DNA of 64,000 nucleotides from Candidatus Omnitrophota bacterium (GCA_023227985.1 JALOCB010000007.1:399-64398); one strand, 5' to 3'. Shown: positions 21,005 through 46,121, counted from the stretch's first letter. Made by a program: numbers and translations. The notes: generated by a model not told the origin, from the sequence alone.

Positions 21005-21019
21005 CAAGGCAGGCTGATT

Positions 21020-21370: not shown

Positions 21371-21428
21371 AGGGCGTTAGCCCGGGTTTATTGCCTAAAG
21401 ATATTCTTGCCAAAAGAAAGGCTGAGAA

Positions 21429-23067: not shown

Positions 23068-23084
23068 ATTAATCGGGGGGTTGT

Positions 23085-24098: not shown

Positions 24099-24880
24099 TC
24101 TTTCTAAGGATAGCCCTTGGTTCTTATCTGCTGTCATTTTTGTCAGGCTGGTTGAATTCATATTTTAGAAACGATCTTTTCCCGATGCTGGCGGTATGGC
24201 TGTTGAAGGCGGGGTTTTTACTGCATACGCTGATACTGGCTATGCGCTGGTATGAGGCTAAGCGTCCCCCCTTCGCTAATATGTACGAGGCGTTGGTGCT
24301 TTTCGCCTGGTCAATAATACTTATTTACATGCTTTTTGACCTTATTTACAAGATCAGGTTTATCTCCAGGCCGGTCACTGCGTTGGTCCTTATTGTCATG
24401 GGTTTTGCCGCGGTTTTAGATAATTCCATCGGGCCGTTAATGCCGGCGCTGCAAAGCAGGTGGATAATCATTCACGTGGTAAGTTATTTCCTGGGATACG
24501 CGGCAATGAGCTTATCGGTTATTTGCGGGATATATTTTTTGAATAGCAGCAAGGGCGTTAATCCGAATGAGGAAAAATTAAGAACCCTGGACAGTTTGGG
24601 TTATTACAGCATAGCTTTTGCGTTCCCTTTTTTGACTATAGGTATGACCACAGGGTCGATATGGGCGAATGTGGCCTGGGGCACATACTGGAACTGGGAC
24701 CCTAAAGAGACTTGTTCATTGATTACCTGGATGGTCTACGCTTTATACCTGCATCTGAGGATGTTTAAAGGGCTGAAAGCCGAAAAAGCGGCATGGCTTT
24801 CCGTGATCGGATATTTTGCCGTGCTCTTTACCTTTGTCGGCGTGAATTTCATTCTCCCCGGCTTGCACAGCTATTCCTAA
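24089..24880 (+). CDS. ccsA: Cytochrome c-type biogenesis protein CcsA/ResC (system II heme lyase)
   Basis: A WWD motif (WGTYWNWDPKETCSLITWMVYALYLHLR) in a polytopic membrane protein. Confidence 0.8.
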   Translation: MQVIFLRIALGSYLLSFLSGWLNSYFRNDLFPMLAVWLLKAGFLLHTLILAMRWYEAKRPPFANMYEALVLFAWSIILIYMLFDLIYKIRFISRPVTALVLIVMGFAAVLDNSIGPLMPALQSRWIIIHVVSYFLGYAAMSLSVICGIYFLNSSKGVNPNEEKLRTLDSLGYYSIAFAFPFLTIGMTTGSIWANVAWGTYWNWDPKETCSLITWMVYALYLHLRMFKGLKAEKAAWLSVIGYFAVLFTFVGVNFILPGLHSYS

Positions 24881-24886
24881 CCCCCT

Positions 24887-24995
24887 GTAGACGTTGTACG
24901 TAATTAATTGTCCCACTTAGAGTTACAAATAAATGTTTTTAAAAAACATTTATTTGTAACTGCCTATTCCGTAGCAGGTTAGCTACAACGTCTAC
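24887..24995. repeat. MITE-like palindromic element with 12-bp terminal inverted repeats and an internal 39-bp perfect palindrome
   Basis: GTAGACGTTGTA...TACAACGTCTAC flanks GTTACAAATAAATGTTTTTAAAAAACATTTATTTGTAAC (24922-24960). A degenerate second copy is at 36679-36790. Confidence 0.55.
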
Positions 24996-25008: not shown

Positions 25009-25037
25009 CTTGACATGATTTTGGAATAGTGTTATTA
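25009..25037 (+). promoter_or_regulatory. Candidate sigma70-like promoter for nikR
   Basis: TTGACA with a 17-nt spacer to TATTAT. The RBS GGAGAGGGG precedes the ATG at 25070. Confidence 0.4.
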
Positions 25038-25069
25038 TTTTAATAATCGTAATATTAAGGAGAGGGGTA

Positions 25070-25486
25070 ATGTCGGAACTGGTAAGGTTCGGGGTATCGC
25101 TGGAAAAGGAGCTTTTACGCAAGCTTGATGGGTTGCGCCTAGAAAAAGGTTATCCCAACCGCTCAGAGGCGATCCGGGACCTTGTGCGCAAAGAGCTGGT
25201 CAAGAAGGAATGGGATGATGGCAAGGAAGTGGTCGGAGCGATAACTCTGGTTTATGACCACCATAAAAGAGAGTTGGTCAATAAACTGACTAATTTACAG
25301 CATGATTTTACCGGCTTGATCTTCGCCAGCCAGCATATTCATATCGATCATCATAATTGCATGGAGATTATAGCGGTGAAGGGCGCCCCGTCGAATATCG
25401 AAGAGCTTTCCGATAAGATGAAAGGGACTAAGGGGGTTAAATTCGGGGCTTTAAGCATGGCTACTACGGGTAGGGGCTTGGAATAA
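25070..25486 (+). CDS. nikR: Nickel-responsive transcriptional regulator NikR
   Basis: An N-terminal ribbon-helix-helix (MSELVRFGVSLEKELL...RSEAIRDLVR) and a C-terminal His/Cys metal-binding region (HIHIDHHNC). Confidence 0.8.
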   Translation: MSELVRFGVSLEKELLRKLDGLRLEKGYPNRSEAIRDLVRKELVKKEWDDGKEVVGAITLVYDHHKRELVNKLTNLQHDFTGLIFASQHIHIDHHNCMEIIAVKGAPSNIEELSDKMKGTKGVKFGALSMATTGRGLE

Positions 25487-25554
25487 TTATGGGGATTATT
25501 TTTTTGTCCGTTGGTAACACGATTATTTAAATCGTGCTAAAAAAGGAGGTGCGC

Positions 25555-26907
25555 GTGTTACGGGGTAGAATGGCCATAAATATTCTTTTGGGGATTTGTG
25601 TTGTCTTCTGTTTCCGGCAGGGCGTCGGTTTTGCCGCGGATACTGTCGCGAATGAGGATGTGCTCGAGCAGATACGGTATCTTAAGAAAACCATCCGGGA
25701 ACAGCAGCAAAAGATCGAAGCGCTTGAGCATCGGGTATCCCGTCAGGAAAACACCGGCCGGGAGATCGGAACTATTGTGCCGGTTTCGGAGATCGACCGG
25801 CGTATTGACGAACGCCTCTCCCAGAAAGCCCCGGCGTATCAATTAATGGAAGGGTTATCCATGAGCGTGGGAGCTACCACTATTGTGCAGTCAGTGCACA
25901 ACGCCAATGGGGCAACCCAGCTTTCCGGCAAAGAGGATGTTACCGATAGCTCTGTTTCCACCGATATCACGCTCAATAAGAAATTCGAGGATTACGGTGA
26001 AGGGTTCGTGTATGTTACCGCGGGTCAGGGCAAAGGCGTTGAAGATGAGTTACAGTTGTACAGTAATGTGAACTATGACGCTGACGATGACCAGAATGTG
26101 CGTTTGTCAGAGGCGTGGTATGAACATTATTTCAAGTCTGTTTCCGGGGCGCTCGCTTTCGGTAAACTTGATCCCACAAAATATATCGATACTAACAGTT
26201 ACGCTAATGACGAGACAACGCAGTTCCTGGGCAGGATGTTCCGGAATTCCGCGGTCGTTGAATTTCCCTCTAACGCTGGCGGCGCGCATTTCGGAGCCTC
26301 GCCTAGCGAGTTTTACAGTATTAATCTTGTGGCAGTGGACGCGGATGCGGATTGGGAGGATGCGTTCGACGGGATGTTCCTCGCCGGCCAGTTTAATCTC
26401 AAACCTAAACTGTTCAACCGGGAAGGCAACTACCGTTTCTTTGTCTGGAATAACGGGGCCAACCACAGTAATTGGTCGGATCCGGCAAAGGATAAGGAGA
26501 ACGGTTATGGATACGGCTTAAGCTTTGACCAGGAATTGACCGATAACCTGGGTATTTTTGCCCGTTACGGCTGGCAGGACCCCAAGGTATATATGAACGG
26601 CAGCGATTTCTCGCTTGAACAATCATGGAGCATCGGACCGCAGATCAAAGGGGTTTTATGGGGCAGGCCGGATGATGTTGTTGGTATAGGCTTTGGCCAG
26701 ATCATACCTTCCAATAAGTACAAGCAGGCGAATAACCTTCAGGCTAAGACTGAAAGTCATATGGAATGCTATTATAATTTCAAGATTAATGAGCATTTAA
26801 GCCTCAGCCCGGACCTGCAGGTTATCTGGCAGCCTTACGGCAAGGACAGCGCTAACGGCGACGGGACTATTGTTGTGGGCGGCTTGCGGGGACAGTTGGA
26901 CTTTTAA
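25555..26907 (+). CDS. Outer-membrane beta-barrel porin-like protein (OprB/carbohydrate-porin-like) with a signal peptide and an N-terminal coiled coil
   Basis: GTG start after AGGAGG. Signal peptide AINILLGICVVFCFRQGVGFA. A coiled-coil segment (EQIRYLKKTIREQQQKIEALEHRV). The rest is beta-rich and ends in ...GQLDF, an aromatic terminus. Confidence 0.45.
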   Translation: MLRGRMAINILLGICVVFCFRQGVGFAADTVANEDVLEQIRYLKKTIREQQQKIEALEHRVSRQENTGREIGTIVPVSEIDRRIDERLSQKAPAYQLMEGLSMSVGATTIVQSVHNANGATQLSGKEDVTDSSVSTDITLNKKFEDYGEGFVYVTAGQGKGVEDELQLYSNVNYDADDDQNVRLSEAWYEHYFKSVSGALAFGKLDPTKYIDTNSYANDETTQFLGRMFRNSAVVEFPSNAGGAHFGASPSEFYSINLVAVDADADWEDAFDGMFLAGQFNLKPKLFNREGNYRFFVWNNGANHSNWSDPAKDKENGYGYGLSFDQELTDNLGIFARYGWQDPKVYMNGSDFSLEQSWSIGPQIKGVLWGRPDDVVGIGFGQIIPSNKYKQANNLQAKTESHMECYYNFKINEHLSLSPDLQVIWQPYGKDSANGDGTIVVGGLRGQLDF

Positions 26908-26946
26908 CGAAAAACTAGTATAATATTTAACAATGGAGGAATTGCG

Positions 26947-28005
26947 ATGCATATGGCAGACGCGTTGATATCCCCGGTTGTGGGCGGGGCTATGTGGGCT
27001 GTTACCGCGGGGCTTATCGCGTACAGCGCTAAAAAGGTCAGGGAGGAAGCGGATGACCGTAAAGTTCCGCTTATGGGCGTGCTGGGCGCTTTTATATTCG
27101 CCGCGCAGATGATCAATTTCAGCATTCCGGCTACAGGATCAAGCGGCCATTTGGGCGGAGGGATGATCCTGGCTATCATCTTAGGGCCTTACGCGGCTTT
27201 TTTGGTCATGGCCTCAGTGCTTATCGTCCAGGCGCTTTTTTTTGCCGACGGAGGCCTGCTCGCGCTGGGCTGCAATATTTTTAATCTGGGATTCTTTCCT
27301 GCTTTTATCGCCTACCCTTTGATCTATCGCAAGATCGCCGGAGATGGTTCTTCATCAAAGCGCATTATGACGGCTGCGATTATTGCCGGGGTGATCGGGT
27401 TGCAATTGGGCGCGTTTAGTGTTGTCCTGGAAACGATATTTTCAGGCATATCCGAACTGCCGTTCAGCACATTCGTATTGTTGATGCAGCCGATCCATTT
27501 GGCTATAGGTGTTGTGGAAGGGCTGGTTACCGCCGCAGTGGTAACCTTTGTCTGGAAGGCCCGGCCGGAGATATTGAACGCTGCCGCGCATTCTACGGCG
27601 ATAGAGAAAGTAGATACCAGAAAGGTCATTACGGGGTTATTAGTGGCCGCTATTGTAGTTGGAGGGGCATTAAGCTGGTTCGCTTCAGCCAATCCTGACG
27701 GTCTGGAATGGGCGATGTTCAAGACTTCGGGCAAAGAAGAACTAGAGAGCGTTGATCCTGTCCACGTTTCTGCTTCCAGCATCCAGGAGAAAACCGCGTT
27801 TCTGCCGGACTATGGTTTTAAGAAAAACGAATCTGCTCAAGTATTTACTGATGTCAACGCTTTAGAAGCAGCGGTAAAACCATCCTGGCCGGCGGTTGAT
27901 CCGGGGACCTCTGTATCAGGGCTGGCCGGGGGAGCTTTGACCATAGCCTTGGTATTTTTGATCGGACTATTGGTTAAACGCCGTACTCCGAAAAGCGCGG
28001 GTTAA
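26947..28005 (+). CDS. ECF-type Ni/Co transporter substrate-capture component CbiM/NikM with a fused N-like C-terminal extension (NikMN)
   Basis: Starts MHMADAL (a CbiM-type N-terminus with His2). The CbiM core is followed by an extra ~120 aa containing a TM segment. 352 aa. Confidence 0.7.
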   Translation: MHMADALISPVVGGAMWAVTAGLIAYSAKKVREEADDRKVPLMGVLGAFIFAAQMINFSIPATGSSGHLGGGMILAIILGPYAAFLVMASVLIVQALFFADGGLLALGCNIFNLGFFPAFIAYPLIYRKIAGDGSSSKRIMTAAIIAGVIGLQLGAFSVVLETIFSGISELPFSTFVLLMQPIHLAIGVVEGLVTAAVVTFVWKARPEILNAAAHSTAIEKVDTRKVITGLLVAAIVVGGALSWFASANPDGLEWAMFKTSGKEELESVDPVHVSASSIQEKTAFLPDYGFKKNESAQVFTDVNALEAAVKPSWPAVDPGTSVSGLAGGALTIALVFLIGLLVKRRTPKSAG

Positions 28006-28065
28006 CCCGATCATTTACATAAAGGGGCATTCAGCAGGCAGTGCCGGTAGCCGGTACTGCCTGCC

Positions 28066-28890
28066 TTGTCTATAAGAATGAATAAGATCAACGGTAATTT
28101 TCTGGATATAGGGTATATGGATACTTTGGCCTGCGCCGACAGCCCTGTGCACAGGCTGGATCCCCGGGCCAAATTAATAGCCACGTTTGTTTTTATCGTG
28201 ACTGTCGTGTCTTTTGACAGGTATGCCATATCCGGGTTGCTGCCGTTTTTTATCTTTCCCGTGGTAATGATCTCCGTTGCCGGGTTGCCGGCCAGGTATA
28301 TCCTTAGAAAAGTGCTTTTGATCTCGCCTTTCGCGATATTGATCGCGATATGTAATCCTTTTCTGGACCGGAGTATTCTTTTTCATGTAGGGGGGATCAA
28401 TATTTCCGGCGGCTGGGTTTCTTTTATCTCTATACTCCTGCGTTTCTTTTTAACGGTGACCGCGGCATTGGTATTGGTTGCATCCACCGGTTTTAACGCG
28501 GTCTGCCTGGCATTGTCCAAGCTGGGACTGCCTAAGCCTTTTGTTATGCAGTTATTATTTCTCTACCGATATATTTTTGTCCTGCTGGAAGAAACAGAAA
28601 GGCTGGTCCGGGCCAGGGCGCTGAGATCTTTTAGCGGCACCGCTATGAAGTTAACAACGTTCACTTCCCTGATCAGCCATCTTTTACTGCGCACGCTGGA
28701 CCGCGCCCAACGTATATATCTGGCCATGTGTTGCCGCGGTTTTGACGGGAATGTCCGGCTTATCCGGTCAATGAAGAAGGGTCGCAGCGAAATAATATTC
28801 GTGGCAGGCTGGTCGGTATTGTTCATTATTTTAAGGTATTGGAATATTCCTTTACATGTCGGCGCGTTGATCACCCGGAGGAGTCTATGA
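28066..28890 (+). CDS. ECF transporter transmembrane (T) component CbiQ/NikQ
   Basis: A polytopic CbiQ-family protein. 274 aa. Its stop overlaps the next ATG. Confidence 0.7.
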   Translation: MSIRMNKINGNFLDIGYMDTLACADSPVHRLDPRAKLIATFVFIVTVVSFDRYAISGLLPFFIFPVVMISVAGLPARYILRKVLLISPFAILIAICNPFLDRSILFHVGGINISGGWVSFISILLRFFLTVTAALVLVASTGFNAVCLALSKLGLPKPFVMQLLFLYRYIFVLLEETERLVRARALRSFSGTAMKLTTFTSLISHLLLRTLDRAQRIYLAMCCRGFDGNVRLIRSMKKGRSEIIFVAGWSVLFIILRYWNIPLHVGALITRRSL

Positions 28891-29636
28891 GCCACCATAT
28901 CGTCGAAGCTATGGACCTGCATTATACCTATCCTGACAAAACCGCGGCGTTGGCCGGCGTATCCTTCCGGATCTCCCATGGGGAATCAGTGGCCCTGGTA
29001 GGCGAGAACGGCGCAGGCAAATCCACGCTGTTATTGCATTTGAACGGATATCTGCGCGCCACGTCCGGCAAGGTGCGTATCGGGGATTGTTTGTTGACTC
29101 CCCAGAACCTGTCGATCGTGCGCCGCAGCGTAGGGATGGTATTCCAAAATCCCGACGACCAATTGTTCATGCCTACGGTATTTGATGATGTGGCTTTCGG
29201 CCCGCTTAATCTTGGCTTGCCCAAAGAGGAGGTGGAGCGCAAAGTCGTTGTGGCCCTGGAAACCGTGGGCATGGCGCATCTGGCAAAGCGTCCGCCGTAT
29301 AAGCTCTCCCAGGGGGAAAAGCGCTCCGTGGCTATAGCCACGGTCCTGGCCATGTCGCCGGATATCCTGGTTATGGATGAACCTACTTCCAGCCTTGACC
29401 CGCGCTCGCGCAGGCGGCTGATCGAACTGCTCAAGACCTTCCGCCATACCAAGATAATCGCCACTCACGACCTGGATATGGCAATGGACCTTTGTGAGAG
29501 GGCTATTGTTCTTCACCGGGGAAAGGTCACTGCCGACGGTCCGACGGCAGAACTTTTCCAGGATGAAGGCCTTCTTTCCCGCAGCTGCCTGGAGAAACCG
29601 CTGCGCATGCAGCATTGTGCAAAGACCGGGTCTTGA
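28887..29636 (+). CDS. ECF transporter ATPase CbiO/NikO
   Basis: Walker A (GENGAGKST), the ABC signature (LSQGEKRSVAIA) and Walker B (LVMDEPTSSLD). The start at MSHHIVEAMDL is inferred. Confidence 0.85.
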   Translation: MSHHIVEAMDLHYTYPDKTAALAGVSFRISHGESVALVGENGAGKSTLLLHLNGYLRATSGKVRIGDCLLTPQNLSIVRRSVGMVFQNPDDQLFMPTVFDDVAFGPLNLGLPKEEVERKVVVALETVGMAHLAKRPPYKLSQGEKRSVAIATVLAMSPDILVMDEPTSSLDPRSRRRLIELLKTFRHTKIIATHDLDMAMDLCERAIVLHRGKVTADGPTAELFQDEGLLSRSCLEKPLRMQHCAKTGS

Positions 29637-29639
29637 AAC
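29622..29639. repeat. 18-nt palindromic element AAGACCGGGTCTTGAAAC, copy spanning the nikO stop codon
   Basis: An identical or near-identical element recurs at 40946-40960 and 40987-41004. Confidence 0.5.
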
Positions 29640-29712
29640 CGGTTGGGGCAGCGATATTTATTGAATAAATATGCCGGGATGATACAATTTAAAATAACCG
29701 GGATGACCTTGT

Positions 29713-30522
29713 ATGCAGGCAGCGGATAAACTAAAGAAGCTTCGGTGTATCTTAAAAGAAATGCGTTCGGTGCTGGTCGCTTTTTCCGGTGGAGCGGACA
29801 GCGCTTTCTTGCTTGCGGTAGCGGAAAGTGTCCTTAAGGGGGATGTGCTGGCGGTAACCGGGGTTTCCCCGTCGATATCCCTTAAGGAGATCGATGAGGC
29901 GTCCCAATTGGCTAAAATACTGAAAGTCAGGCACAGGAGGATAAAATATAGCCTGTCCAAAGAATTCTGGCGAAATTCCGCCAAACGGTGCTATTATTGT
30001 AAGAAGGCTTTATTTATAAGATTAAAAAATATTGCCGGAAGGCAAAAGCTGTCTTGTATTGCCGATGCCACAAATACCGATGACCGCCTTGATTATAGGC
30101 CAGGCGCAGCGGCTCTGAAGGAATTGGGAATAAGGAGCCCGCTTCAAGAAGCGGGATTGAGCAAGAAAGAGATCCGGCTGCTTTCCCGTAAGATCGGCCT
30201 TAAGTCCTGGGATAAGCAGGCGTCAGCCTGTCTTGCTTCCCGGATCCCTTATAATGAGCGCATAACTCCGGAAAAGCTTTTGCGGGTCGGCAAAGCCGAG
30301 GAATTCATCCGCGGGCTGGGTTTTGATCAGGTTAGGGTGCGTTCGCACGCAGGACTGGCTAGGGTGGAATTGGGCCGGGGAGATATTCCCAAGGCTGTTA
30401 AGGTGAAGGAAAAGATATTACGTAAATTGCGGAGCCTGGGTTTTGTTTATGTGACTGTTGATCTGGAAGGTTACCGCGTCGGTTCGCTGAATGAGGTATT
30501 GGGATGGAAAAAAATAAAATAA
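29713..30522 (+). CDS. larE: LarE-like ATP-dependent sulfur transferase (PP-loop ATP pyrophosphatase) of nickel-pincer cofactor biosynthesis
   Basis: A PP-loop (SGGADS). 269 aa. A Cys in ASACLASRIPYNE. Adjacent to larB and the Ni transporter. Confidence 0.65.
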   Translation: MQAADKLKKLRCILKEMRSVLVAFSGGADSAFLLAVAESVLKGDVLAVTGVSPSISLKEIDEASQLAKILKVRHRRIKYSLSKEFWRNSAKRCYYCKKALFIRLKNIAGRQKLSCIADATNTDDRLDYRPGAAALKELGIRSPLQEAGLSKKEIRLLSRKIGLKSWDKQASACLASRIPYNERITPEKLLRVGKAEEFIRGLGFDQVRVRSHAGLARVELGRGDIPKAVKVKEKILRKLRSLGFVYVTVDLEGYRVGSLNEVLGWKKIK

Positions 30523-31262
30523 CCGCGCTGCTTAAGCGTGTAAGAGAAAAAAAGATAACGATCAACGATGCTTTCATGAAATTAAGGCATCTGCCTTATG
30601 AGGACCTGGGTTTTGCCAAGGTCGATCATCATCGTTTGATGCGCACTGGTTTCCCCGAGGTGATCTTTTGCCAGGGGAAAACCCCGGAACAGATACTGGC
30701 GATATTCAAGGCGCTTTCCCGGAAGAATAAAAAAGTGCTTTTGACCCGTGTTGACGGGAAAATGTTCAAGAAGATCAAAAGCATAAACCGCAGGGTATTT
30801 TATAACGCGCAAGCTCGGACTGTTTGTCTTGACGGGGCAAAGCCTGTCCGGGAAGGATTGGTTTCAGTGGTCTGCGCAGGCACAGCCGATATCACGGCGG
30901 CTGAAGAGGCGGCGGTCACGGCTGAGCTTTTTGGCAGCCGCGTGGAAAGGGTCTATGATGTGGGTGTGGCAGGCCTGCACCGTCTTTTAGGCTCGTTTAA
31001 AAAAATCTCAGCAAGCCGGTGCATCATTGTTTTAGCCGGAATGGACGGTGTTTTGCCCTCGGTAATAGGCGGTCTTGCTTCCTGTCCGGTGGTCGCTGTG
31101 CCGACATCAGTGGGTTACGGCGCTAATTTTAAAGGTATCGCGCCTCTTTTGACGATGCTCAACAGCTGCGCCCCGGGAGTGTCCGTGGTTAATATCGATA
31201 ACGGCTTTGGCGCCGGATACATCGCTTCTCTTATCAACAGGGGCGCGGCATGCGTGACCTAA
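30504..31262 (+). CDS. larB: LarB-like nickel-pincer nucleotide biosynthesis carboxylase/hydrolase (PurE-like fold)
   Basis: EDLGFAKVDHHRLMRTGFPEVIFCQGKT, VVCAGTADITAAEEA, AGMDGVLPSVIGGL. 252 aa. Confidence 0.7.
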   Translation: MEKNKITALLKRVREKKITINDAFMKLRHLPYEDLGFAKVDHHRLMRTGFPEVIFCQGKTPEQILAIFKALSRKNKKVLLTRVDGKMFKKIKSINRRVFYNAQARTVCLDGAKPVREGLVSVVCAGTADITAAEEAAVTAELFGSRVERVYDVGVAGLHRLLGSFKKISASRCIIVLAGMDGVLPSVIGGLASCPVVAVPTSVGYGANFKGIAPLLTMLNSCAPGVSVVNIDNGFGAGYIASLINRGAACVT

Positions 31263-31579
31263 AGCCTGTTTTGAAACAGATAGAAGGCAACGAACGGTTC
31301 CAGCGTTTGCTCGCCGGAGCCCCTTTTACCGCCGGGATCAAATCAGGGGCAGTGATACTGGCCCCCGGCGAATCCGTGGGCGAGCATAAAACCGAATCCC
31401 GGGAAGAGGCGATCGTCATATTGGAAGGCCGGGCGGATGTTCATATCCAAGGTAAATCCGCGTTTACCGCTGAAGCGCAAAGCCTGGTCTATATACCCCC
31501 TGAAACAAACCATGACATAAAAAATAACGGCGATAAGAAACTGCGCTATGTTTATGTGGTTGTTCCTGTCCTGCCTTGA
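31250..31579 (+). CDS. Cupin-domain protein
   Basis: The cupin motif GESVGEHKTESREEAIVILEGRADVHIQGK...YIPPETNHDIKN. 109 aa. Confidence 0.55.
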   Translation: MRDLKPVLKQIEGNERFQRLLAGAPFTAGIKSGAVILAPGESVGEHKTESREEAIVILEGRADVHIQGKSAFTAEAQSLVYIPPETNHDIKNNGDKKLRYVYVVVPVLP

Positions 31580-38621: not shown

Positions 38622-39626
38622 TCAACAGATGCGGGGGAGTTGTTCGCCGGTAAGCATGTCCAGGATCCTGGTTGACCCTATAGCGGTGCGCAGCAATACC
38701 AGAGGGGTATCTTTTTTGATTACCTCCCCGATGATGCGGGAATTTTTTCCCAGGGGGTTCTTGCGCATCGCCGATAATATTTTTTTGCTTTCACTTCCCG
38801 GGGCAAATACCAGCACCTTGCCTTCGTTAGCCATGTATAAAGGATCAATGCCTAAGAGCTCACAAACGCCTTTTACCGCTTCGGGTATCGGCAGGCTGTC
38901 TTCGTCGACCTGGATGCGCACACCGGATTGCAAGGCGACCTCATTAAGGGTGGTAGCCACGCCGCCTCGGGTGGGATCGCGCATTACATGGACCTTAGAA
39001 GAGGTTTTTAATATACAGGCTATCAGGTGATTAAGGGCGGCGCAGTCGCTTTTTATGTTGGTTTCCAGCTTGTAATCCTGCCGGGCGGACATTACCGCTG
39101 CCCCGTGCTCGCCGATGTTGCCGTTGATGATGATTGCGTCACCAGCCTTAGCGTTATTGCCTGATACCTTTACTTTGGCATCAACCATTCCTATCCCTGT
39201 AGTATTGATAAAGATCCCGTCGCAAGAGTTTTTCTCAACCACCTTGAAATCACCGCCGATGATCTCGACCCCGGCGAGTTTTGCTGCCTCGGCCATTGAG
39301 CGGATCACTTTCTTCAATAGGCTGATCTCAAATCCTTCTTCTACTATGCAGGCGGCAGTAAGGTATAATGGCTTGGCGGCCATTACCGCGAGGTCGTTTA
39401 CAGTGCCGCAGACCGCCAGTTTACCGATATCCCCTCCCGGGAAGAATAGGGGGTGGACCACAAATGAGTCGGTGGTGAAGGCGAGCCTGCCTTTGCAGTC
39501 AAATATCGCGGCGTCGTCGGCCTTATCCAGAATGGGGTTGGAGAAGCAAGGGAAGACGACCTCTTTTAAAAGTCTGTGGCTTAGCTTCCCGCCGCTGCCG
39601 TGTCCTAAAAGTATCCGTTCTTCCAT
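38622..39626 (-). CDS. hypE: Hydrogenase maturation carbamoyl-dehydratase HypE
   Basis: Starts MEERILLGHGSGG (compare E. coli MNNIQLAHGSGG). An AIR-synthase-like fold. Ends in ...PRIC. Confidence 0.9.
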   Translation of the reverse strand: MEERILLGHGSGGKLSHRLLKEVVFPCFSNPILDKADDAAIFDCKGRLAFTTDSFVVHPLFFPGGDIGKLAVCGTVNDLAVMAAKPLYLTAACIVEEGFEISLLKKVIRSMAEAAKLAGVEIIGGDFKVVEKNSCDGIFINTTGIGMVDAKVKVSGNNAKAGDAIIINGNIGEHGAAVMSARQDYKLETNIKSDCAALNHLIACILKTSSKVHVMRDPTRGGVATTLNEVALQSGVRIQVDEDSLPIPEAVKGVCELLGIDPLYMANEGKVLVFAPGSESKKILSAMRKNPLGKNSRIIGEVIKKDTPLVLLRTAIGSTRILDMLTGEQLPRIC

Positions 39627-39627
39627 A

Positions 39628-40710
39628 TCAACGATTGTATTTATACCAGGCGGCACAGGTCCCTTCAGAAGAGACCATGCACGGGCCATAAGGATTTTCC
39701 GGGGTGCAGGCTTTCGCGAAAAGTCCGCATTGATCCGGGGTTTTTACTCCTCGTAATACCTGTCCGCATAAACAATTCCCGGGCCGGACCGGGTTTTTTA
39801 CCGTCAGATCGAATTTTTCCTTTGCGTTGAATTTCTTGAAATCGCTGTTCAGGTTAAGTCCGCTTTCCGGAATTGTCCCTAATCCCCGCCATCTGGCTTC
39901 GGTCGTCGTGAATACGTCTTTGAGCAATTCCCGGGCAAGGGGATTTCCTTCGGGGCGCACCGCGCGCTTATACTGGATCTCAACCTCAGCGCGCTCTTCG
40001 CGGATCTGTTTCAAAAGCATCAGTATCGATTCCAGTATATCCACCGGCTCAAAGCCGGAGATAACGCAAGGTATTTTATGCTGGGAAGCGACGAATTCGT
40101 AACTCGCGCTGCCGATTATGCTGGAAACGTGCCCCGGGCAGATAAAACCGTCCAACCTCAGTTCTTTTGCTTTAAGCAAAGCTTCCAACGCCGGCGGTAT
40201 AAGCTTATGGCAAGGGTAGATCGAGAAATTATCCAGCTTATTTTCGCGCGCGTCGGAGACTGCCGAGGCTATGGCAGGAGAGGTGGTCTCAAATCCCACT
40301 GCCAAGAAAACCACTTCCTTGTTCTTATTCTCCCTGGCTATTTCCAGGCTGTCTAACGGGCTGTAAACGCTGCGTATATCGCATCCCTTGGCGCGTTCTT
40401 TTTCCAGGGAGCTGGTTGTTCCCGGAACCCTGAGCATATCCCCGAAGGAAGTAGAGATGACATTCTTTATCCCGGCCAGCTTGAGCATGCTGTCAATATC
40501 CCCTTGATCGGTCACGCACACCGGGCATCCAGGGCCGGAGATTATGTTAACTCCTTGCGGCAGTATTTGTTTTATCCCTGAGCGGAATATGGCCATGGTA
40601 TGCGTCCCGCAGACTTCCATTAGATTTATATTCTGCGGTTTCAGCCTTTTTATCCGCTGCGCCAGTTTTTTAACAATATCTTTGTCACGAAATTCGTCTA
40701 TATATTTCAT
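39628..40710 (-). CDS. hypD: Hydrogenase maturation factor HypD
   Basis: CGTHTMAI and GPGCPVCVTDQGDID (CPVC) motifs plus a C-terminal Cys cluster. Confidence 0.9.
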   Translation of the reverse strand: MKYIDEFRDKDIVKKLAQRIKRLKPQNINLMEVCGTHTMAIFRSGIKQILPQGVNIISGPGCPVCVTDQGDIDSMLKLAGIKNVISTSFGDMLRVPGTTSSLEKERAKGCDIRSVYSPLDSLEIARENKNKEVVFLAVGFETTSPAIASAVSDARENKLDNFSIYPCHKLIPPALEALLKAKELRLDGFICPGHVSSIIGSASYEFVASQHKIPCVISGFEPVDILESILMLLKQIREERAEVEIQYKRAVRPEGNPLARELLKDVFTTTEARWRGLGTIPESGLNLNSDFKKFNAKEKFDLTVKNPVRPGNCLCGQVLRGVKTPDQCGLFAKACTPENPYGPCMVSSEGTCAAWYKYNR

Positions 40711-40712
40711 TT

Positions 40713-40931
40713 TTACTCGTCGTAATATATCTGTTCCAGCAATTTAAGGGTTTCCTTTGCCTGTTCTTCATCGATTTTCTCAATAGCGAAACCCGCGTGC
40801 ACCAGGATATAGTCGCCGACTTGCAGGCCTTCCAGGAAACGCACATCTACCAGGCGTTTTACGCCGGCCATATTCACTTGCGCGGAATTTTCTTTTATCT
40901 TGATCACTTTAACTGGTATGGCAAGGCACAT
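40713..40931 (-). CDS. hypC: Hydrogenase maturation chaperone HypC
   Basis: Starts MCLAIPVKV (the essential Cys2). 72 aa. Confidence 0.85.
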   Translation of the reverse strand: MCLAIPVKVIKIKENSAQVNMAGVKRLVDVRFLEGLQVGDYILVHAGFAIEKIDEEQAKETLKLLEQIYYDE

Positions 40932-40945
40932 ATTGTTTTCCTTTT

Positions 40946-40960
40946 CAAGACCCGGTCTTG
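40946..40960. repeat. Palindrome CAAGACCCGGTCTTG (inverted copy of the 18-nt element) between the hypF stop and the hypC start
   Basis: Related to the copies at 29622-29639 and 40987-41004. Confidence 0.45.
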
Positions 40961-40964
40961 TAAC

Positions 40965-43298
40965 TTATTCTGCCGCAGCGTTTTGTAAGACCGGGTCTTG
41001 AAACGCGTTGGCGATGGCTGCTTGGCCGAGTGAAATCGCTCCGTCATTAGCCGGCAAAAGCTGGTTATAATAAACCGTGAATTTATCCCGGCGTAGATTA
41101 TCCAGGCATGTTTCAAGGAACAACCTGTTCTGAAAAACCCCGCCGGAAAGGACTGCCGTTTCGAGACCGTTCCTCTCGCGCATTATCCTGCAGGCCTGGG
41201 CCACGGCCTTTGCCAGTCCGTTGTGAAATTTCCGGGCAATGTCTTTTTTATCGATCCTTTTTTTAATATCTTCGACCAGCTGCCGGATAGCCGTTTGGGG
41301 CTTGATAATGAATAGACCGTTATCATTCCGTATCATAAAATCGTAACTTTTATCGCTGCGGGATCCTTCGGCAAGCATTTGTAATCTTATCGCCGCTTCA
41401 GCCTCAAAAGTTATTATATCACAAATTCCCGCCAGCGCACTCACTCCGTCAAAAAGGCGGCCGCAACTGGAAGTAAGCAGGGGATTTATCTGGGCGGAGT
41501 TGATGACTCGGTCCAGGTCCTTGCGGTATTTCGCGGTAAAGGGGATCTTTATCCCGGACAGGTCCGGGCCAAAGGTCTTATACAGGTAACTTATGCCCAT
41601 GCGGAAAGGCTCCTGCGTCGCTTTATCCCCGCCGGGCATCGGCGTATATTCCAAGTGCCCTTTCCTTTGAAAGCCTTTCAGGTCTCCGGCGAAGAACTCT
41701 CCGCCCCATACCTTGCCGTCCGTGCCATAACCTATCCCGTCCAGGCAGACCCCGATGACCTTTCCTTTTATCCGGTGTTCGCAGATAACGCTGGCCAGAT
41801 GGCTGTGATGGTGCTGGATCTGGATGATTTTTACCTTTGGTTTATTTTCTTTGTATTGCAGCGCGTATTTTGTGGAAAGATAATCCGGGTGAAGGTCGCA
41901 GGCGATTATTTCCGGTTTCATTCCCAACAATCCGCAAAGCCTGTTTATTGTCTCCTGGTAAAAGGTGAATGCGGGGTAAGTCTTCAGGTCGCCGATGAAC
42001 TGGCTTAAGAAAGCGAAATTATCTTTTGCCAGGCAAAATGTGTTTTTAAGTTCGGCCCCGCAGGCCAGAATATTCTTCATCCGGTTGTCAGTGAAGAACG
42101 GGAAAGGCGCATATCCCCGGCTGCGGCGCAGGAGTACGGGTTTTTCGTCCATTATCTGGACGATGGAATCGTCGGTCCGGTTATGTATACGGCGGTTATG
42201 GACCAGGAAATAATCGCAGACCCCGCCCAGGTTATTTATTGCCAGGGTATTCTCTATTTCTATGGGTTCGTCGCTGATATTCGCGCTGGTCATTACCAGT
42301 TTGCTTAACGCATTGCCGGGCAAGGTCTCTGCGTCCAAAAGAAGATGGTGCAGGGGCGCGTAAGCCAGCATCACGCCCAAACAATTATTATAAGGACTGA
42401 GCAGGCGGGTGATCTTATTCTCCAGCTTCTTCTTTAATAAAAGGATCGGGCTTTCCGGGCTGGAAAGTATCTTTTCCTCAAGGCCGGATATCTCGCACCA
42501 TCGGGTTAGCTCTCGGATATCTTTTACCATTATGGCAAAAGGTTTATACGGCCGTTTCTTGCGCTCTCTTAAAAGACGGATCGCTTTAGGGTTATCCGCG
42601 TCGCAACTGATATGAAATCCGCCGATACCTTTTATGGCTAAGATCTTGCCTGATTTCAATAATTTTACAGTCTCAAGAAGGGCTTTTTTCCCTTTGGCCA
42701 GGGTTTTTGTCCGGCGCCCGCGAAGCTGAACTAATTCCAGGGCCGGGCCGCATATAGAGCAGGCATTAGGCTGGGCGTGAAAGCGTCGCTGATCGATATC
42801 CTTGTATTCGGCCTTACAGTCAGGACACATTTTGAAGCCGGCCATGGTAGTCAGAGGCCGGTCGTAGGGAAGGTCTTTGATAATCGAGAAACGCGGGCCG
42901 CAATTGGTGCAATTTATAAAAGGGTAAAGAAATCTGCGGTCAGAGGGATCAAAAAGCTCTTTAAGGCAGTCAGGGCAGGTCGCTATGTCAGGGCTTATTA
43001 ATGCCGATTGTCCCCGGGTTTTTAGGCTTTCCTTGATCGAGAAATCACTGTAACCGGCAGGTTTAACAAAGTTTATATCTTTCTTGGTGACCCTTGCCAG
43101 GGGAGGGAGTTCCTTTCCCAGGTTTTCAAAGAATGATAATATATTTTCCCTGACAGCCTCCACGTGTATCTCTACTCCGCTGGAAGTGTTTAAGACGAAA
43201 CCGGTTAACGCAAGTTCGCGGCAGAGGCGAAGGATGAACGGCCGGAAGCCTACTCCTTGGACAACTCCTTCGAGGTGTATTTTCGCAGCGTAGACCAT
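40965..43298 (-). CDS. hypF: Hydrogenase maturation carbamoyltransferase HypF
   Basis: Acylphosphatase (VQGVGFRPF), two Zn-finger CxxC pairs, YrdC-like and Kae1-like domains. 777 aa. Confidence 0.9.
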   Translation of the reverse strand: MVYAAKIHLEGVVQGVGFRPFILRLCRELALTGFVLNTSSGVEIHVEAVRENILSFFENLGKELPPLARVTKKDINFVKPAGYSDFSIKESLKTRGQSALISPDIATCPDCLKELFDPSDRRFLYPFINCTNCGPRFSIIKDLPYDRPLTTMAGFKMCPDCKAEYKDIDQRRFHAQPNACSICGPALELVQLRGRRTKTLAKGKKALLETVKLLKSGKILAIKGIGGFHISCDADNPKAIRLLRERKKRPYKPFAIMVKDIRELTRWCEISGLEEKILSSPESPILLLKKKLENKITRLLSPYNNCLGVMLAYAPLHHLLLDAETLPGNALSKLVMTSANISDEPIEIENTLAINNLGGVCDYFLVHNRRIHNRTDDSIVQIMDEKPVLLRRSRGYAPFPFFTDNRMKNILACGAELKNTFCLAKDNFAFLSQFIGDLKTYPAFTFYQETINRLCGLLGMKPEIIACDLHPDYLSTKYALQYKENKPKVKIIQIQHHHSHLASVICEHRIKGKVIGVCLDGIGYGTDGKVWGGEFFAGDLKGFQRKGHLEYTPMPGGDKATQEPFRMGISYLYKTFGPDLSGIKIPFTAKYRKDLDRVINSAQINPLLTSSCGRLFDGVSALAGICDIITFEAEAAIRLQMLAEGSRSDKSYDFMIRNDNGLFIIKPQTAIRQLVEDIKKRIDKKDIARKFHNGLAKAVAQACRIMRERNGLETAVLSGGVFQNRLFLETCLDNLRRDKFTVYYNQLLPANDGAISLGQAAIANAFQDPVLQNAAAE
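40987..41004. repeat. 18-nt palindromic element AAGACCGGGTCTTGAAAC embedded in the last codons of hypF
   Basis: The reverse complement encodes the C-terminal ...QDPVL... of HypF. Confidence 0.45.
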
Positions 43299-43380
43299 AA
43301 GTCATTTTAACATAAGAATCCGGATAAAGCACGAATATTTGAAAGCTATTGAGATTATTAAGGTAAGAATTAAAATTTTC

Positions 43381-43409
43381 TTGACAACCCTGTGTATTTA
43401 TGTTAAAAG
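43381..43409 (+). promoter_or_regulatory. Candidate promoter (weak -10) in the hypF/hydrogenase divergent region
   Basis: TTGACA with a 17-nt spacer to TAAAAG. It lies ~250 nt upstream of the hydrogenase small-subunit start. Confidence 0.3.
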
Positions 43410-43497
43410 AAAACAGGTCAGTGCAGGTAAAAGTAAATTCACAAGGGTCAGAAAAATTGATAAAAGCCACGTTTATCAAAATTTAGAAATCCTGTAA

Positions 43498-43526
43498 GCT
43501 CAAGCAATGCTTGAGCTTTTTTGTTT
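43498..43526 (+). terminator. Intrinsic-terminator-like hairpin inside the hydrogenase 5' region (attenuator or 3' end of a small RNA)
   Basis: GCTCAAGC-aat-GCTTGAGC followed by TTTTTTGTTT. No + strand CDS lies upstream for it to terminate. Confidence 0.55.
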
Positions 43527-43656
43527 CCCTTGCTTAGAGAGTGTGGCTTGTTTTTGGGATAAATGTTCGGGGAATGAAGTAGGGATGGTTCCTGGATTCC
43601 CGGCGGCTTGCCGCGGGGAGCTTCATTTCTAAAGATGATTAAAAAGGAGGTAGCAA

Positions 43657-44601
43657 ATGGAACTTACGAGGCGAGAGTTTTTGAAGCTGTGCAGCGCTTC
43701 AGCGGTCGGTATGGGTATTTCTCAGCTTGTTATCCCGGAATTGGTCCAAGCTATGGAACAGGCTGCTTCTACCAAACCCCCGGTTATCTGGCTTCAGGGT
43801 TCTAATTGCACCGGCTGCGTTGTTTCTTTGCTTAATACCGCGCATCCTACTATAGCGGAGGTCTTGCTTAAGATCATTGACCTGCATTACCTGCCGACTG
43901 TTATGGCAGCTTCAGGGGAAACAGCTGTTAATTACCTTGATATAATATCTGAAAAGGCAAAAGGCGAATATTTCCTGCTGGTTGAAGGCGCTGTGTCGAC
44001 AAAAGACGATGGTATCTATTGCACCATCGGCCAGAAAGACGGCAAGGAGATGACTTTCCTTGAGACTATCAAGACCCTCGGGCCCAAGGCCAAGGCGATT
44101 ATTTCTGTTGGAGATTGCGCTTCGTTCGGAGGGATATCTGCGGCAAAACCGAATCCTACTGGATGTAAACCGGTAAGTGAGGTTGTTTCCGGAGTCCCAA
44201 TTATTAATATCCAAGGCTGCCCGCCGCATCCGGACTGGTTATTGGGAACAATTGTCCATGTGCTTCTTTTCGGATTGCCTGAACTTGACGATAAAGGCAG
44301 GCCGAAAATGTTCTATGGAGAGACAGTTCATCAAAATTGCCCGAACTATTCTTATTTTGCAGAAGGGAAAATGGCCACCAAGATCGGCGAAAAAGGTTGC
44401 CTTATTCAATTAGGCTGCAAAGGCCCGATGGCCAGCTCGGATTGTCCTTTACGCAAATGGAACTCAGGCGTTAATTGGTGTGTCGGCGTGGGCGCGCCTT
44501 GTATCGGTTGCTCCAGCCCGGATTTCCCGGATGGGATGTCGCCGTTCTATTCCGCTCTGCCTAAGGATAAATGGCCTAAAAAGGATAGCGAGATTGCTTA
44601 G
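43657..44601 (+). CDS. [NiFe] hydrogenase small subunit with a twin-arginine signal (periplasmic, group 1-like)
   Basis: The Tat motif RREFLK, then proximal-cluster Cys motifs (WLQGSNCTGC, GDCASFGG, GCPP) and distal/medial cluster cysteines. 314 aa with no C-terminal TM anchor. Confidence 0.9.
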   Translation: MELTRREFLKLCSASAVGMGISQLVIPELVQAMEQAASTKPPVIWLQGSNCTGCVVSLLNTAHPTIAEVLLKIIDLHYLPTVMAASGETAVNYLDIISEKAKGEYFLLVEGAVSTKDDGIYCTIGQKDGKEMTFLETIKTLGPKAKAIISVGDCASFGGISAAKPNPTGCKPVSEVVSGVPIINIQGCPPHPDWLLGTIVHVLLFGLPELDDKGRPKMFYGETVHQNCPNYSYFAEGKMATKIGEKGCLIQLGCKGPMASSDCPLRKWNSGVNWCVGVGAPCIGCSSPDFPDGMSPFYSALPKDKWPKKDSEIA

Positions 44602-44645
44602 TCAATTTACCGGACACCCCGCGCTGAAAGGATTGCGCTGGGCGG

Positions 44646-44679
44646 ACACCCGGCGCAATCGGAATATGCGCCGGTGTTG
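44646..44679. repeat. Copy of the covarying hairpin repeat, sitting between the hydrogenase small and large subunit genes
   Basis: ACACCCGGCGCAATCGGAATATGCGCCGGTGTTG. The stem variant CGC/GCG is compensatory relative to the copies at 6865 and 7047. A partial copy is at 44611-44625. Confidence 0.6.
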
Positions 44680-44702
44680 ATTATCTAATCAAGGAGGTTT
44701 TG

Positions 44703-46121
44703 ATGGCTACTCAGAAAATAGTAATAGATCCGGTAACAAGGATCGAAGGACATTTAAAAATAACCTGCGAAGTGGATGACGGGAAAATAATCGACGCGTA
44801 CAGCTCCGGGACTATGTGGCGCGGTATCGAGGTTATTTTAAGAGGCCGCGACCCGCGTGACGCCCAGCATATTACCCAGAGGATCTGCGGGGTATGCCCT
44901 ATGGCCCATGGAACAGCCGCGACCCTCTGTTTGGACGACGCGTTCAAGGTCACTATCCCGGATAACGGCAGGATCATCCGTAACCTGCTTTTAGGTTCCA
45001 ACCACATTCAATCGCATATACTGCATTTTTATCACCTGGCAGCCCTTGACTATGTTATCGGGCCGGATATTCCGCCGTTCGTCCCCAGGTATAAAGGGGA
45101 CTTTCGTCTGCCCAAAGACTTGAACGACGCTTATGTGGCGCATTACCTGCAGGCTTTGGAGATGCGTAAAAAGGCCCATGAAATGCTGGCGGTTTTCGGC
45201 GGCAAAATGCCTCCCCAGATGACCATGCTTCCCGGCGGTGTAACTGTTACGCCTACCGTGGATAAGATCGCCTCGTTTCTCTGGCGTCTGCGTGAACTTC
45301 AGGCGTTCATCAATGACGTGTATATCCCGGATGTCTTAGGTGTTGCCGAGGTGTATTCCGACTACAAGAAAATCGGTATCGGGCATGGCAATCTTCTTGC
45401 TTACGGAGGATTCCCGCTGGACAGCCAAAACAAAGAAAAATTCTTCAAGGCAGGGCGTTATACCAAAGGCAGTATCGTCGGGTTTGATCCTTTAAAGGTC
45501 ACCGAGGATATAAAATATTCCTGGTATAAAAGCGGAGGTTCAGGTAAGAATCCTTATGACGGGGTTACTGACCCTGATGCTGAAAAGAAAGATGCCTATA
45601 GCTGGTTGAAAGCCCCCAGATACGACAATCAGCCGTATGAAGTGGGTCCGTTGGCCAGAATGTGGGTAAACGGCGATTATCGCCAGGGTATTTCTGTTAT
45701 CGACCGCCATGCGGCCCGCGCTATAGAGGCTAAGAAGATCGCCGAGGCGATGGAAGGCTGGCTGCTTCAATTAAAACCCGGCGCTCCGTCCTGGGCAGAA
45801 TACAAGGTTCCGGAATCCGGAGAGGGTATGGGGTTGACCGAAGGCGCCCGTGGAGCTTTGGGACATTGGATCAAGATAGCAAAGGGCAAGATAGAAAATT
45901 ATCAGGCGGTAGTTCCTACTACCTGGAATTGCGGCCCGCGCGATGATAAAGGCGTACGCGGACCGGTGGAAGAATCGCTGGTAGGCACCGCTATAGCTGA
46001 TGCCGAGAATCCTCTGGAGATAGTCAGGATCATCCGTTCGTTCGACCCTTGTATTGCCTGCGCGGTCCATTTGATCAGGCCGAACAACGGCGCAGAGATC
46101 AAGAAGTTCCGCGTTGTCTGA
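44703..46121 (+). CDS. [NiFe] hydrogenase large subunit
   Basis: N-terminal RIEGHLKI, the Ni-binding RICGVCPMAH, and a C-terminal DPCIACAVH followed by a 16-aa extension cleaved by the protease. The RBS AGGAGG precedes the ATG. 473 aa is short for group 1. Confidence 0.9.
   Translation: MATQKIVIDPVTRIEGHLKITCEVDDGKIIDAYSSGTMWRGIEVILRGRDPRDAQHITQRICGVCPMAHGTAATLCLDDAFKVTIPDNGRIIRNLLLGSNHIQSHILHFYHLAALDYVIGPDIPPFVPRYKGDFRLPKDLNDAYVAHYLQALEMRKKAHEMLAVFGGKMPPQMTMLPGGVTVTPTVDKIASFLWRLRELQAFINDVYIPDVLGVAEVYSDYKKIGIGHGNLLAYGGFPLDSQNKEKFFKAGRYTKGSIVGFDPLKVTEDIKYSWYKSGGSGKNPYDGVTDPDAEKKDAYSWLKAPRYDNQPYEVGPLARMWVNGDYRQGISVIDRHAARAIEAKKIAEAMEGWLLQLKPGAPSWAEYKVPESGEGMGLTEGARGALGHWIKIAKGKIENYQAVVPTTWNCGPRDDKGVRGPVEESLVGTAIADAENPLEIVRIIRSFDPCIACAVHLIRPNNGAEIKKFRVV

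Follow-up and report, generated by a model that had tools for sequence, protein, structure and literature searches.

We analyzed a 64-kb stretch of DNA from a Candidatus Omnitrophota bacterium (the window) that carries a nickel island of eight co-directional plus-strand genes at 25070-31579. These encode the regulator NikR, an OprB-family porin, the NikMN, NikQ and NikO components of an energy-coupling factor (ECF) importer, LarE and LarB of nickel-pincer nucleotide (NPN) cofactor synthesis, and a small cupin (Table 1). Domain and equivalog matches on the plus strand bore out all of the gene identities and coordinates proposed in an initial annotation of this DNA. The same gene order recurs at the sister-species loci L002, L003, L010 and L168, so it is not a chance arrangement. 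We think it likely that this is a NikR-controlled nickel-acquisition island in which the porin and NikMNQO act in series and to which a lar module is attached.

Table 1. Genes, promoter-like sites, putative operators and other elements in and around the nickel island
Feature	Position	Strand	Basis or remark
nikR promoter, predicted; sigma-70-like, TTGACA-17 nt-TATTAT with TG	25010..25038	+	11/12 consensus positions, best in region
NikR box 1, putative; GTGTTAT-N13-GTAATAT	25029..25055	+	overlaps nikR promoter -10; 15 nt upstream of nikR
nikR, 138 amino acids (aa)	25070-25486	+	RHH_1 and NikR_C; NCBIfam NikR equivalog NF003381, 177.9 bits (cut-off 105)
Porin-operon promoter-like site; TTGTCC-17 nt-TTAAAT	25504..25532	+	read from sequence; preceded by conserved TATTATTTTTTTG tract
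NikR box 2, putative, reversed; GTAACAC-N13-GTGCTAA, palindrome GTAACACGATT-N5-AATCGTG	25514..25540	+	directly upstream of porin ribosome-binding site (RBS; AGGAGG)
OprB-family porin, 450 aa	25555..26907 (open reading frame, ORF, from 25534)	+	Pfam OprB, 94.4 bits (cut-off 22.9)
nikMN, fused ECF substrate-capture component, 352 aa	26947-28005	+	CbiM at residues 2-209, PDGLE at 225-345
Perfect 14-bp GC-rich hairpin between nikMN and nikQ	28034..28064	+	terminator-like scan; without clear T-run
nikQ, ECF T component	28117-28890	+	Pfam CbiQ; TIGR02454, 142 bits (cut-off 111.8)
nikO, ECF ATPase	28887-29636	+	ABC_tran; TIGR01166 (cbiO subfamily), 215.7 bits (cut-off 211.8)
larE-larB-cupin promoter-like site; TTGAAT-16 nt-TG-n-TACAAT	29661..29688	+	without NikR box
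larE, PP-loop sulfur insertase, CxxC-C type	29713-30522	+	TIGR00268, 303 bits (cut-off 150)
larB, nicotinic acid adenine dinucleotide (NaAD) carboxylase/hydrolase	30504-31262	+	NF033503, 288.8 bits (cut-off 175)
Small monocupin, 109 aa	31250-31579	+	Cupin_2, 51.8 bits (cut-off 27.2)
hypE, hypD, hypF (- strand) and [NiFe]-hydrogenase small and large subunits (+ strand)	38622..46121	-/+	Pfam AIRS, HypD, HypF, NiFe_hyd_SSU_C, NiFeSe_Hases

The porin and its genomic company

The product of the second gene had been proposed to be an outer-membrane beta-barrel, and structure prediction agrees. Both the gene caller and the RBS position favor the GTG at 25555 as its start. A signal peptide and a coiled coil make up the N-terminal part of the protein, its C-terminus reads ...GQLDF, ending in phenylalanine, and the Pfam OprB match (PF04966; TC 1.B.19) spans residues 160-457 of the 457-aa ORF. 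An AlphaFold2 (AF2) model built on a 27-sequence alignment reached a predicted local distance difference test score (pLDDT) of 81.2, with two long N-terminal helices (residues 33-98) followed by a barrel of 16 long strands (residues 101-449). Foldseek returned P. putida OprB (4gey) as the best match in the PDB (E 9.3e-23, template modeling score 0.66-0.70), with the next hit at E 2e-10. The mature protein is acidic, with an isoelectric point of 4.7 and 61 Asp and Glu residues versus 38 Lys and Arg. It falls outside the NCBIfam ‘iron uptake porin’ family NF033921, which we take to be cyanobacterial, because it scores 28.6 bits against a cut-off of 100.

We surveyed the porin family by scanning one genome per GTDB species and kept 80 loci, nearly all titled Omnitrophota, with a few other labels. 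A porin homolog stands beside nikR and/or nikM in 60/80 of these loci, and nikR lies directly upstream of it in 44/80. Both nik genes are nearby in 42 loci, nikR only in 10 and nikM only in 8. Eleven homologs are instead accompanied by a DtxR-type repressor and FeoB (L021, L022, L026-L029, L035, L043, L060, L069 and L075), two by a GDT1 antiporter and a P-type ATPase (L005 and L006), and seven by none of these systems. Metal regulators or transporters flank 73/80 homologs in all. From these counts, the porin family is consistently attached to divalent-metal import, mostly of nickel.

Such company is hard to reconcile with an ordinary carbohydrate or general porin that has come to lie beside nikR incidentally. 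The Pfam family name and the database name ‘carbohydrate porin’ point that way, as does the identity of the closest solved structure, a glucose porin. Set against this are the 60 of 80 species in which the gene adjoins nikR and/or nikM, the other divalent-metal systems found at 13 of 20 loci that lack nik genes nearby, the acidity of the barrel, and the conserved NikR-type operator in the porin promoter described below. No sugar-utilization genes are adjacent, and several homologs are named ‘high affinity Mn2+ porin’ by annotation based on KEGG Orthology. The carbohydrate-porin reading is already disfavored, and we regard it as extremely improbable.

The initial annotation had further called the protein a candidate dedicated nickel channel, which goes too far. 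Close paralogs sit beside DtxR-FeoB or GDT1 and the P-type ATPase, and in a neighbor-joining tree of 81 porins the nickel-linked and Feo-linked copies are intermixed, without separate clades. In one metagenome-assembled genome, a FeoB-linked copy (L043) coexists with a copy that has no metal genes nearby (L083). The idea of a nickel-specific clade with a selectivity of its own was dropped, since the tree leaves nickel-linked and Feo-linked copies unseparated. The most fitting description of the protein is that of an acidic cation porin, regulated by metal and drawn into nickel uptake, and not that of a proven nickel-specific channel.

Putative NikR operators and the ECF importer

The island’s NikR aligns over its full length with P. 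horikoshii NikR (2bj1, E 1e-37), and its nickel-site motif, QH-(10 residues)-HIHIDHHNC, aligns with QH...HVHMDEHNC of that protein. We take the high-affinity nickel site of E. coli NikR to consist of H76', H87, H89 and C95. NikR target promoters carry a dyad operator, two half-sites spaced by ~13-16 nt.

The delta-proteobacterial NikR box has been defined as GTGTTAC-N13/14-GTAACAC (Rodionov 2004, PMC545781), and a reversed form, GTAACAC-N13/14-GTGTTAC, has been reported from Desulfotalea psychrophila and at D. vulgaris nikK (PMC545781). Box 1 is the sole match with at most three mismatches to GTGTTAC-N13-GTAACAC in the 64 kb, and its sequence and placement suggest a site of nikR autoregulation. 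The extended motif TTGACA-N13-15-GTG[TC]TAC-N13-GTAA[CT]AC precedes nikR in about 50 Omnitrophota loci, and a GTARCAC half-site occurs within 165 nt upstream of nikR in 42/50 loci, over a background of 0.14 per kb. Box 2, the window’s only two-mismatch match to the reversed form, falls within the 68-nt spacer between nikR and the porin gene. It is kept in L002, L003, L009, L010, L011 and L013, and close relatives retain the palindrome GTAACACGATT-N5-AATCGTGTTAA. Across species, GTARCAC is found within 115 nt past the nikR stop in 34/44 nikR-porin spacers, over the same background. Most loci also keep, just past the nikR stop, a T-tract/TTG, then GTA[AG]CACGA, then an A/T-rich -10, an arrangement in keeping with the putative porin promoter at 25504..25532. 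Singly, the two best box matches in the window are unremarkable for 64 kb; that both lie in the short spacers flanking nikR has a joint chance of ~3e-5.

From the nik adjacency in 60/80 loci and the NikR-box half-sites on both the nikR and the porin promoters, we infer that the porin belongs to the nickel regulon. The initial annotation had suggested NikR control of the porin, which the comparison of species strongly backs, with nikR directly upstream in 44/80 loci and a conserved operator. It had also proposed looking for NikR-box palindromes upstream of both the porin gene and nikM. One is present and conserved upstream of the porin gene, and no NikR box was found upstream of nikMN or of larE, where sigma-70-like sites only were seen. 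The site between nikO and larE has an extended -10, and its TTGAA(T/G)...TACAAT spacing is kept in L010. If it is a promoter, as its sequence suggests, the lar module may be expressed partly independently of nickel. An Rfam scan of the window, L019 and L055 found no riboswitch and no match to any other Rfam family, so control by a B12 or NiCo RNA is excluded here.

The nikR-porin spacer varies among relatives. At L016, L017, L024, L025, L034, L039, L047, L065, L066 and others, the porin operator is a direct repeat, whereas the nikR promoters of the same loci retain the inverted box; a direct repeat is an odd operator geometry for a NikR tetramer. An extra ORF of ~48 aa occupies the spacer in L015, L019, L032, L041, L045, L050 and L055, and the one in L019 matches DUF2292. 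Downstream of this ORF, ~20-30 nt ahead of the porin RBS, comes a conserved CGACTGGAYAACCAGAG motif. Its sequence in L055 and L032 complements that of the RBS/start region (TTGTCCAG), a hint that translation of the porin is controlled there.

All parts of the ECF importer with a fused 352-aa MN component, which had been described as complete, were found: M, an N-type component, Q and O. NikMN aligns from residue 1 with the NikM2 structure 4m58, and both the Met1-His2 N-terminus and His68 of the GxxxH motif (GSSGH) are conserved; we take the Met-His N-terminus and the conserved histidine to be ligands of the planar metal site of NikM2. M carries a fused PDGLE domain as the N-type component; the CbiN match is weak. 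The best NCBIfam names for these genes are ‘cobalt transporter CbiM/CbiQ/CbiO’, and the CbiM and NikM families are hard to tell apart by sequence, so that a CbiMNQO cobalt importer has to be considered. Matches to the CbiM equivalogs, however, all fall far below their cut-offs, nikR adjoins the importer and NikR boxes are present, and the window holds neither a B12 riboswitch nor any other Rfam match. No cobalamin genes are adjacent, and [NiFe]-hydrogenase, hyp and lar genes are nearby. Under the rule of Rodionov and colleagues that context and regulator decide the metal specificity of ECF systems, import of cobalt rather than nickel is very unlikely.

The transporter cassette has a history of its own in the sister species. 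At L002:11467-14177 and L003:8223-10933, it is only 26-38% identical to the window’s cassette (26947-29636), while the flanking nikR, porin, larE, larB and cupin genes are 76-89% identical. In these two loci, nikM and PDGLE/nikN are separate genes, and fused and split cassettes both recur across the phylum. By its sequence, this looks like in-place, non-orthologous replacement of nikMNQO.

The lar genes and their cupin partner

Over 239 aa, LarB shares 50% identity with its L. plantarum counterpart and conserves the MLNSCA segment, in which Cys221 is presumably the catalytic cysteine. LarE carries the motifs SGGADS, RCYYCK and ASAC, with its third cysteine lying one residue past the site of L. 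plantarum Cys176. T. maritima LarE holds a [4Fe-4S] cluster and has a CxxC-C signature with the same one-residue cysteine shift (PMC9283937). Because the signatures match, the window’s LarE is probably of the catalytic [4Fe-4S] type, not the sacrificial one.

The initial annotation had stated that larA and larC are missing from the window, and searches agree. Neither was found in the 64 kb by tblastn with L. plantarum and C. butyricum seeds (E <= 1e-3), and Pfam scans with precomputed calls, covering most window ORFs of at least ~250 aa, gave no Lar_N or LarC domain. Nor do they lie immediately outside, the outcome that had been named as counting against the annotation: contigs with identical edge proteins extended the view by ~10 kb beyond either end (~84 kb in total), and these stretches contain housekeeping, chemotaxis or pilus genes and no LarA or LarC. 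For comparison, we drew on a metagenome scan with LarB, whose matches were mostly non-Omnitrophota loci of 50-61% identity, for a background set of the nearest non-Omnitrophota LarB loci of at least 6 kb (n=46). In this set larC lies within 10 kb of larB in 18/46 loci and is lacking there in 28/46, so dispersed lar genes are normal, and the absence of LarC and LarA around the island is therefore weak evidence. Among surveyed genomes, ~15% have larBCE without larA (PMC11796402).

LarB homologs are widespread in Omnitrophota. A LarA-family gene (Lar_N, 1.5e-39) lies beside an FAD-linked oxidase gene at L017:18821-21162, and others were seen in L023, L029, L033 and L039. They belong to another Omnitrophota clade and lie 6-9 kb from a porin homolog, with nik genes adjoining in L017, L023 and L039. 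These genes indicate that NPN-dependent LarA enzymes exist in Omnitrophota.

The cupin is a conserved, sometimes fused partner of LarB in Omnitrophota, a point the initial annotation had missed. The order larE-larB-cupin is found in 10/10 independent Omnitrophota contexts, whatever the surroundings (the window clade, L010, L168, L169, L170, L171, L172, L173/L174, L175/L176 and L177). In L169, a complete 3.36-Mb chromosome (OY759724.1), the module is far from the nik locus. It follows nikO in L001-3, L010 and L168 and precedes nikR in L174, and has thus been joined to the nik locus in two ways. In the window, the start of the cupin ORF overlaps the larB stop by 13 nt. Elsewhere, LarB::cupin fusions make up four protein clusters (P0174, P0195, P0207 and P0235), and a further 19 LarB/cupin pairs have equal longest-contig size, some of only 2.2-5.1 kb. 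A search of 1.84 billion representatives with a cupin profile gave 428 relatives at E <= 1e-10, nearly all stand-alone. The sole fusion among the top 150 is LarB::cupin (P0235), and the profile matches examined included no cupin-LarC or cupin-LarE fusion. The conserved gene order and the LarB::cupin fusions tie the cupin to pincer-cofactor biology.

Five residues are invariant in the cupin family: H46, E52, E53, H88 and N92. Motif 1 reads GEHxTxxxEE(x)6G, with threonine in place of the second histidine, and motif 2 reads PPExxHxxxN. The AF2 model has a pLDDT of 93, and a structure search with it returned generic monocupins only, with no functional lead. We tentatively suggest that the cupin is a His/Glu/His metal-binding helper of LarB/LarE that could handle nickel for the pincer cofactor, as a chaperone or insertion aid.

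A more radical version is that the cupin replaces LarC, with LarB, LarE and the cupin making NPN in genomes without a LarC gene. The cupin is adjacent in 10/10 Omnitrophota larB contexts and LarC lies within 10 kb of larB in 0/10, compared with LarC at 18/46 and the cupin at 0/46 background LarB loci (Fisher p = 0.02 and 2e-10, respectively, calculated on the first nine contexts). The fusions and the invariant His/Glu/His triad would also fit. LarC chemistry, though, is a CTP-dependent cyclometallation by a large hexameric enzyme (PMC13510736), and this is a 109-aa cupin without nucleotide-binding features. We found no LarC match in 1.38 Mb of collected Omnitrophota sequence, a negative that is uninformative because the collection consists of nik/lar-centered fragments in which chance placement would yield ~0.5 matches. 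With 28/46 ordinary LarB loci also lacking a nearby LarC, and the cupin present at nik loci without larB nearby, we consider replacement of LarC quite improbable.

The cupin could instead be an NPN-using enzyme of a new, non-LarA fold, analogous to the aldo-keto reductase (AKR)-type NphT family. Genes that accompany those of NPN biosynthesis have been a source of new NPN enzymes before, and the pathway is present without LarA in ‘hundreds of prokaryotes’ (PMC13524815; PMC11796402). The strict adjacency of the cupin to larB, the lack of LarA in the window, and the frequency of isomerases and epimerases among small cupins (PDB neighbors) are consistent with such a role. Yet the family offers no invariant lysine for a thioamide tether (positions 31, 47 and 91 vary), 109 aa leave little room for a nucleotide cofactor, and fusion to the first biosynthetic enzyme is more in line with a partner in the pathway than with its end user. 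Some metal-transport loci have the cupin but no lar genes, and LarA homologs do occur in other Omnitrophota. We judge an NPN-using enzyme unlikely. The combined proposal, in which the 105-115-aa cupin is a third NPN component (through LarC-independent nickel insertion or as a non-LarA NPN-binding protein) and the porin is a NikR-repressed OprB-type nickel porin, strikes us as rather doubtful as a whole.

Other genes keep company with the cupin in some loci. At L057:5113-9484, L064:14055-18115 and L077:14429-18598, it closes a nik operon and is followed by genes for ZIP, FeoA, FeoB and a ThiI-like PP-loop/NFACT-R protein, in a larger multi-metal island that has neither larE nor larB. A gene for a UbiE/COQ5-like S-adenosylmethionine (SAM) methyltransferase lies directly after the cupin at L168:11279-12094, L171:11099-11983 and L177:10342-11154, and another precedes larE at L173:2565-3158; the module may include this methyltransferase as well. 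L168 and L171 also have radical-SAM genes close by, and a gene for an AlaDh/PNT-family dehydrogenase lies upstream in L177.

Surroundings, precedents and a proposed path of nickel

The island is flanked upstream by a siroheme-dependent heme pathway, hemL and cytochrome c biogenesis genes (resB/ccsB), and downstream by glgC. Also passed over by the initial annotation were the hyp and [NiFe]-hydrogenase genes 7-15 kb downstream; the hydrogenase is a likely main consumer of the imported nickel. The upstream genes form a long co-directional tetrapyrrole block (12910-24880) that reaches directly to the island and contains hemA, hemC, a fused cobA/hemD, two radical-SAM genes of the Ahb type, hemB, a fused ahbA/B-like NirDL gene, two PilZ genes, hemL and resB/ccsB. 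Between ccsB and nikR, at 24888-24994, lies a terminator-like outer stem (GTAGACGTTGTA ... TACAACGTCTAC) with a T-rich run after it; inside the stem is a perfect AT-rich palindrome of 41 bp (24921-24961; AGTTACAAATAAATGTTTTT-A-AAAAACATTTATTTGTAACT). The element is partly kept in L002 and L003 and may serve another regulator as its operator or be a nested element. Within the island, the nikMN-nikQ hairpin might have a role inside the operon in processing, stability or attenuation.

Several components of the island are already known from other systems: NikR with Nik(MN)QO, lar genes beside a nickel ECF importer, Fe-S LarE, and metal-regulated OprB porins, for Mn and, by prediction, Fe. The NikR-nik(MN)QO operons of Geobacter and Desulfovibrio (PMC545781) share with the island a NikR repressor, a fused-MN ECF importer and hydrogenase genes nearby. 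Their GTGTTAC/GTAACAC half-sites are likewise 13-14 nt apart, with the reversed orientation included (PMC545781). Unlike those operons, the island places an OprB-family porin with its own putative operator between nikR and nikMN, has lar genes and a cupin appended, and belongs to an Omnitrophota host whose relatives often have a direct-repeat-like porin operator.

For the porin, the closest parallel is MnoP of Bradyrhizobium japonicum, an OprB-type barrel for Mn2+ that is co-located and co-regulated with a divalent-metal transporter (Hohle et al. 2011). Geobacter sulfurreducens has a predicted Fur-regulated OprB porin upstream of feoAB (PMC545781). The window’s porin differs from these manganese and iron porins in that its regulator and partner transporter are those of nickel, and it has a coiled-coil N-terminus where MnoP has an extra N-terminal outer-membrane protein domain. 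Helicobacter pylori FrpB4/FecA3 and the receptors at the Caldithrix abyssi NikR loci are also outer-membrane proteins under NikR that serve an inner-membrane nickel importer. These proteins, however, are energized, 22-strand, TonB-dependent transporters, and NikR-regulated outer-membrane nickel transporters of any other type are not known. The window instead encodes a diffusion porin of 16 strands, and TonB/ExbBD genes are not found near it.

The placing of NPN genes directly beside a fused-MN nickel ECF importer recalls L. plantarum, with larABCDE and larR(MN)QO, and C. butyricum (L085; megaplasmid NZ_CP132345.1, 245754-252363), where larB-larC-larE and ECF(MN)-Q-O are followed by an AKR gene. 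The L085 arrangement matches one that led to the NPN-dependent AKR family NphT. Compared with these clusters, the window is without larC, larA or an AKR gene, has the order larE-larB, and has the cupin in third place. Its LarE resembles T. maritima LarE (PMC9283937) in the sequence features SGGxDS and CxxC-C with a shifted third cysteine. The literature we searched described no nickel porin, NikR-regulated porin, LarB-associated cupin or Omnitrophota lar genes, and the cupin could be the one component that is new in kind.

A number of observations count against a NikR-controlled island with this division of labor. The porin operator has two mismatches and a reversed half-site order, and in many loci the second half-site makes a direct repeat (GTAGCAC-N13-GTAGCAA), a form not validated for any NikR. 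The p-values are overstated, because the counts across loci are not phylogenetically independent. Nothing in the porin sequence marks nickel selectivity, given the intermixing in the tree, and the protein may simply be a cation porin placed under different regulators. The role of the cupin is a guess, because in L057, L064 and L077 it comes after nikO with neither larE nor larB in the vicinity, and because it has no invariant lysine and has generic monocupins as its structural neighbors. The rest of the genome most likely holds LarC and the NPN-using enzyme, though for LarC this is an assumption, and the host organism is uncultured.

On the nickel-acquisition reading, which we favor, Ni-NikR would bind 25029-25055, at the -10 of its own promoter, and 25514-25540, in the porin promoter, when nickel is sufficient. 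Binding would shut off nikR together with a presumed porin-nikMN-nikQ-nikO operon. When nickel is scarce, the acidic and probably trimeric OprB-type porin would raise the flux of cations, Ni2+ among them, across the outer membrane, and NikMNQO would capture Ni2+ at the Met1-His2/His68 site of NikM and import it at the cost of ATP. The larE-larB-cupin genes would be transcribed from their own sigma-70-like promoter, possibly with read-through from nikO. LarB would carboxylate and hydrolyze NaAD and [4Fe-4S] LarE would insert two sulfurs, the first two steps toward NPN. Imported nickel would also feed the [NiFe] hydrogenase 12 kb downstream.

Outer-membrane entry of nickel is known only for a few TonB-dependent transporters, as in Helicobacter, and elsewhere ‘porins’ are merely assumed. 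A porin with a NikR operator ahead of NikMNQO in most of 80 sampled species is a concrete, clonable candidate and, if the assignment is true, would be the first diffusion channel assigned to nickel uptake. The occurrence of the same porin family beside DtxR-FeoB provides a natural comparison for what, if anything, sets metal selectivity. The NPN field is meanwhile seeking new enzymes and variants of the pathway, with the AKR-type NphT and an NPAD-dependent cyclodeaminase as recent reports. Published genome mining anchored on LarC would miss the Omnitrophota module unless larC were close, and there is no larC within 10 kb in the ten contexts. On the strength of the larE-larB-cupin module and the LarB::cupin fusions, a new protein family can be put forward for the nickel-pincer pathway.

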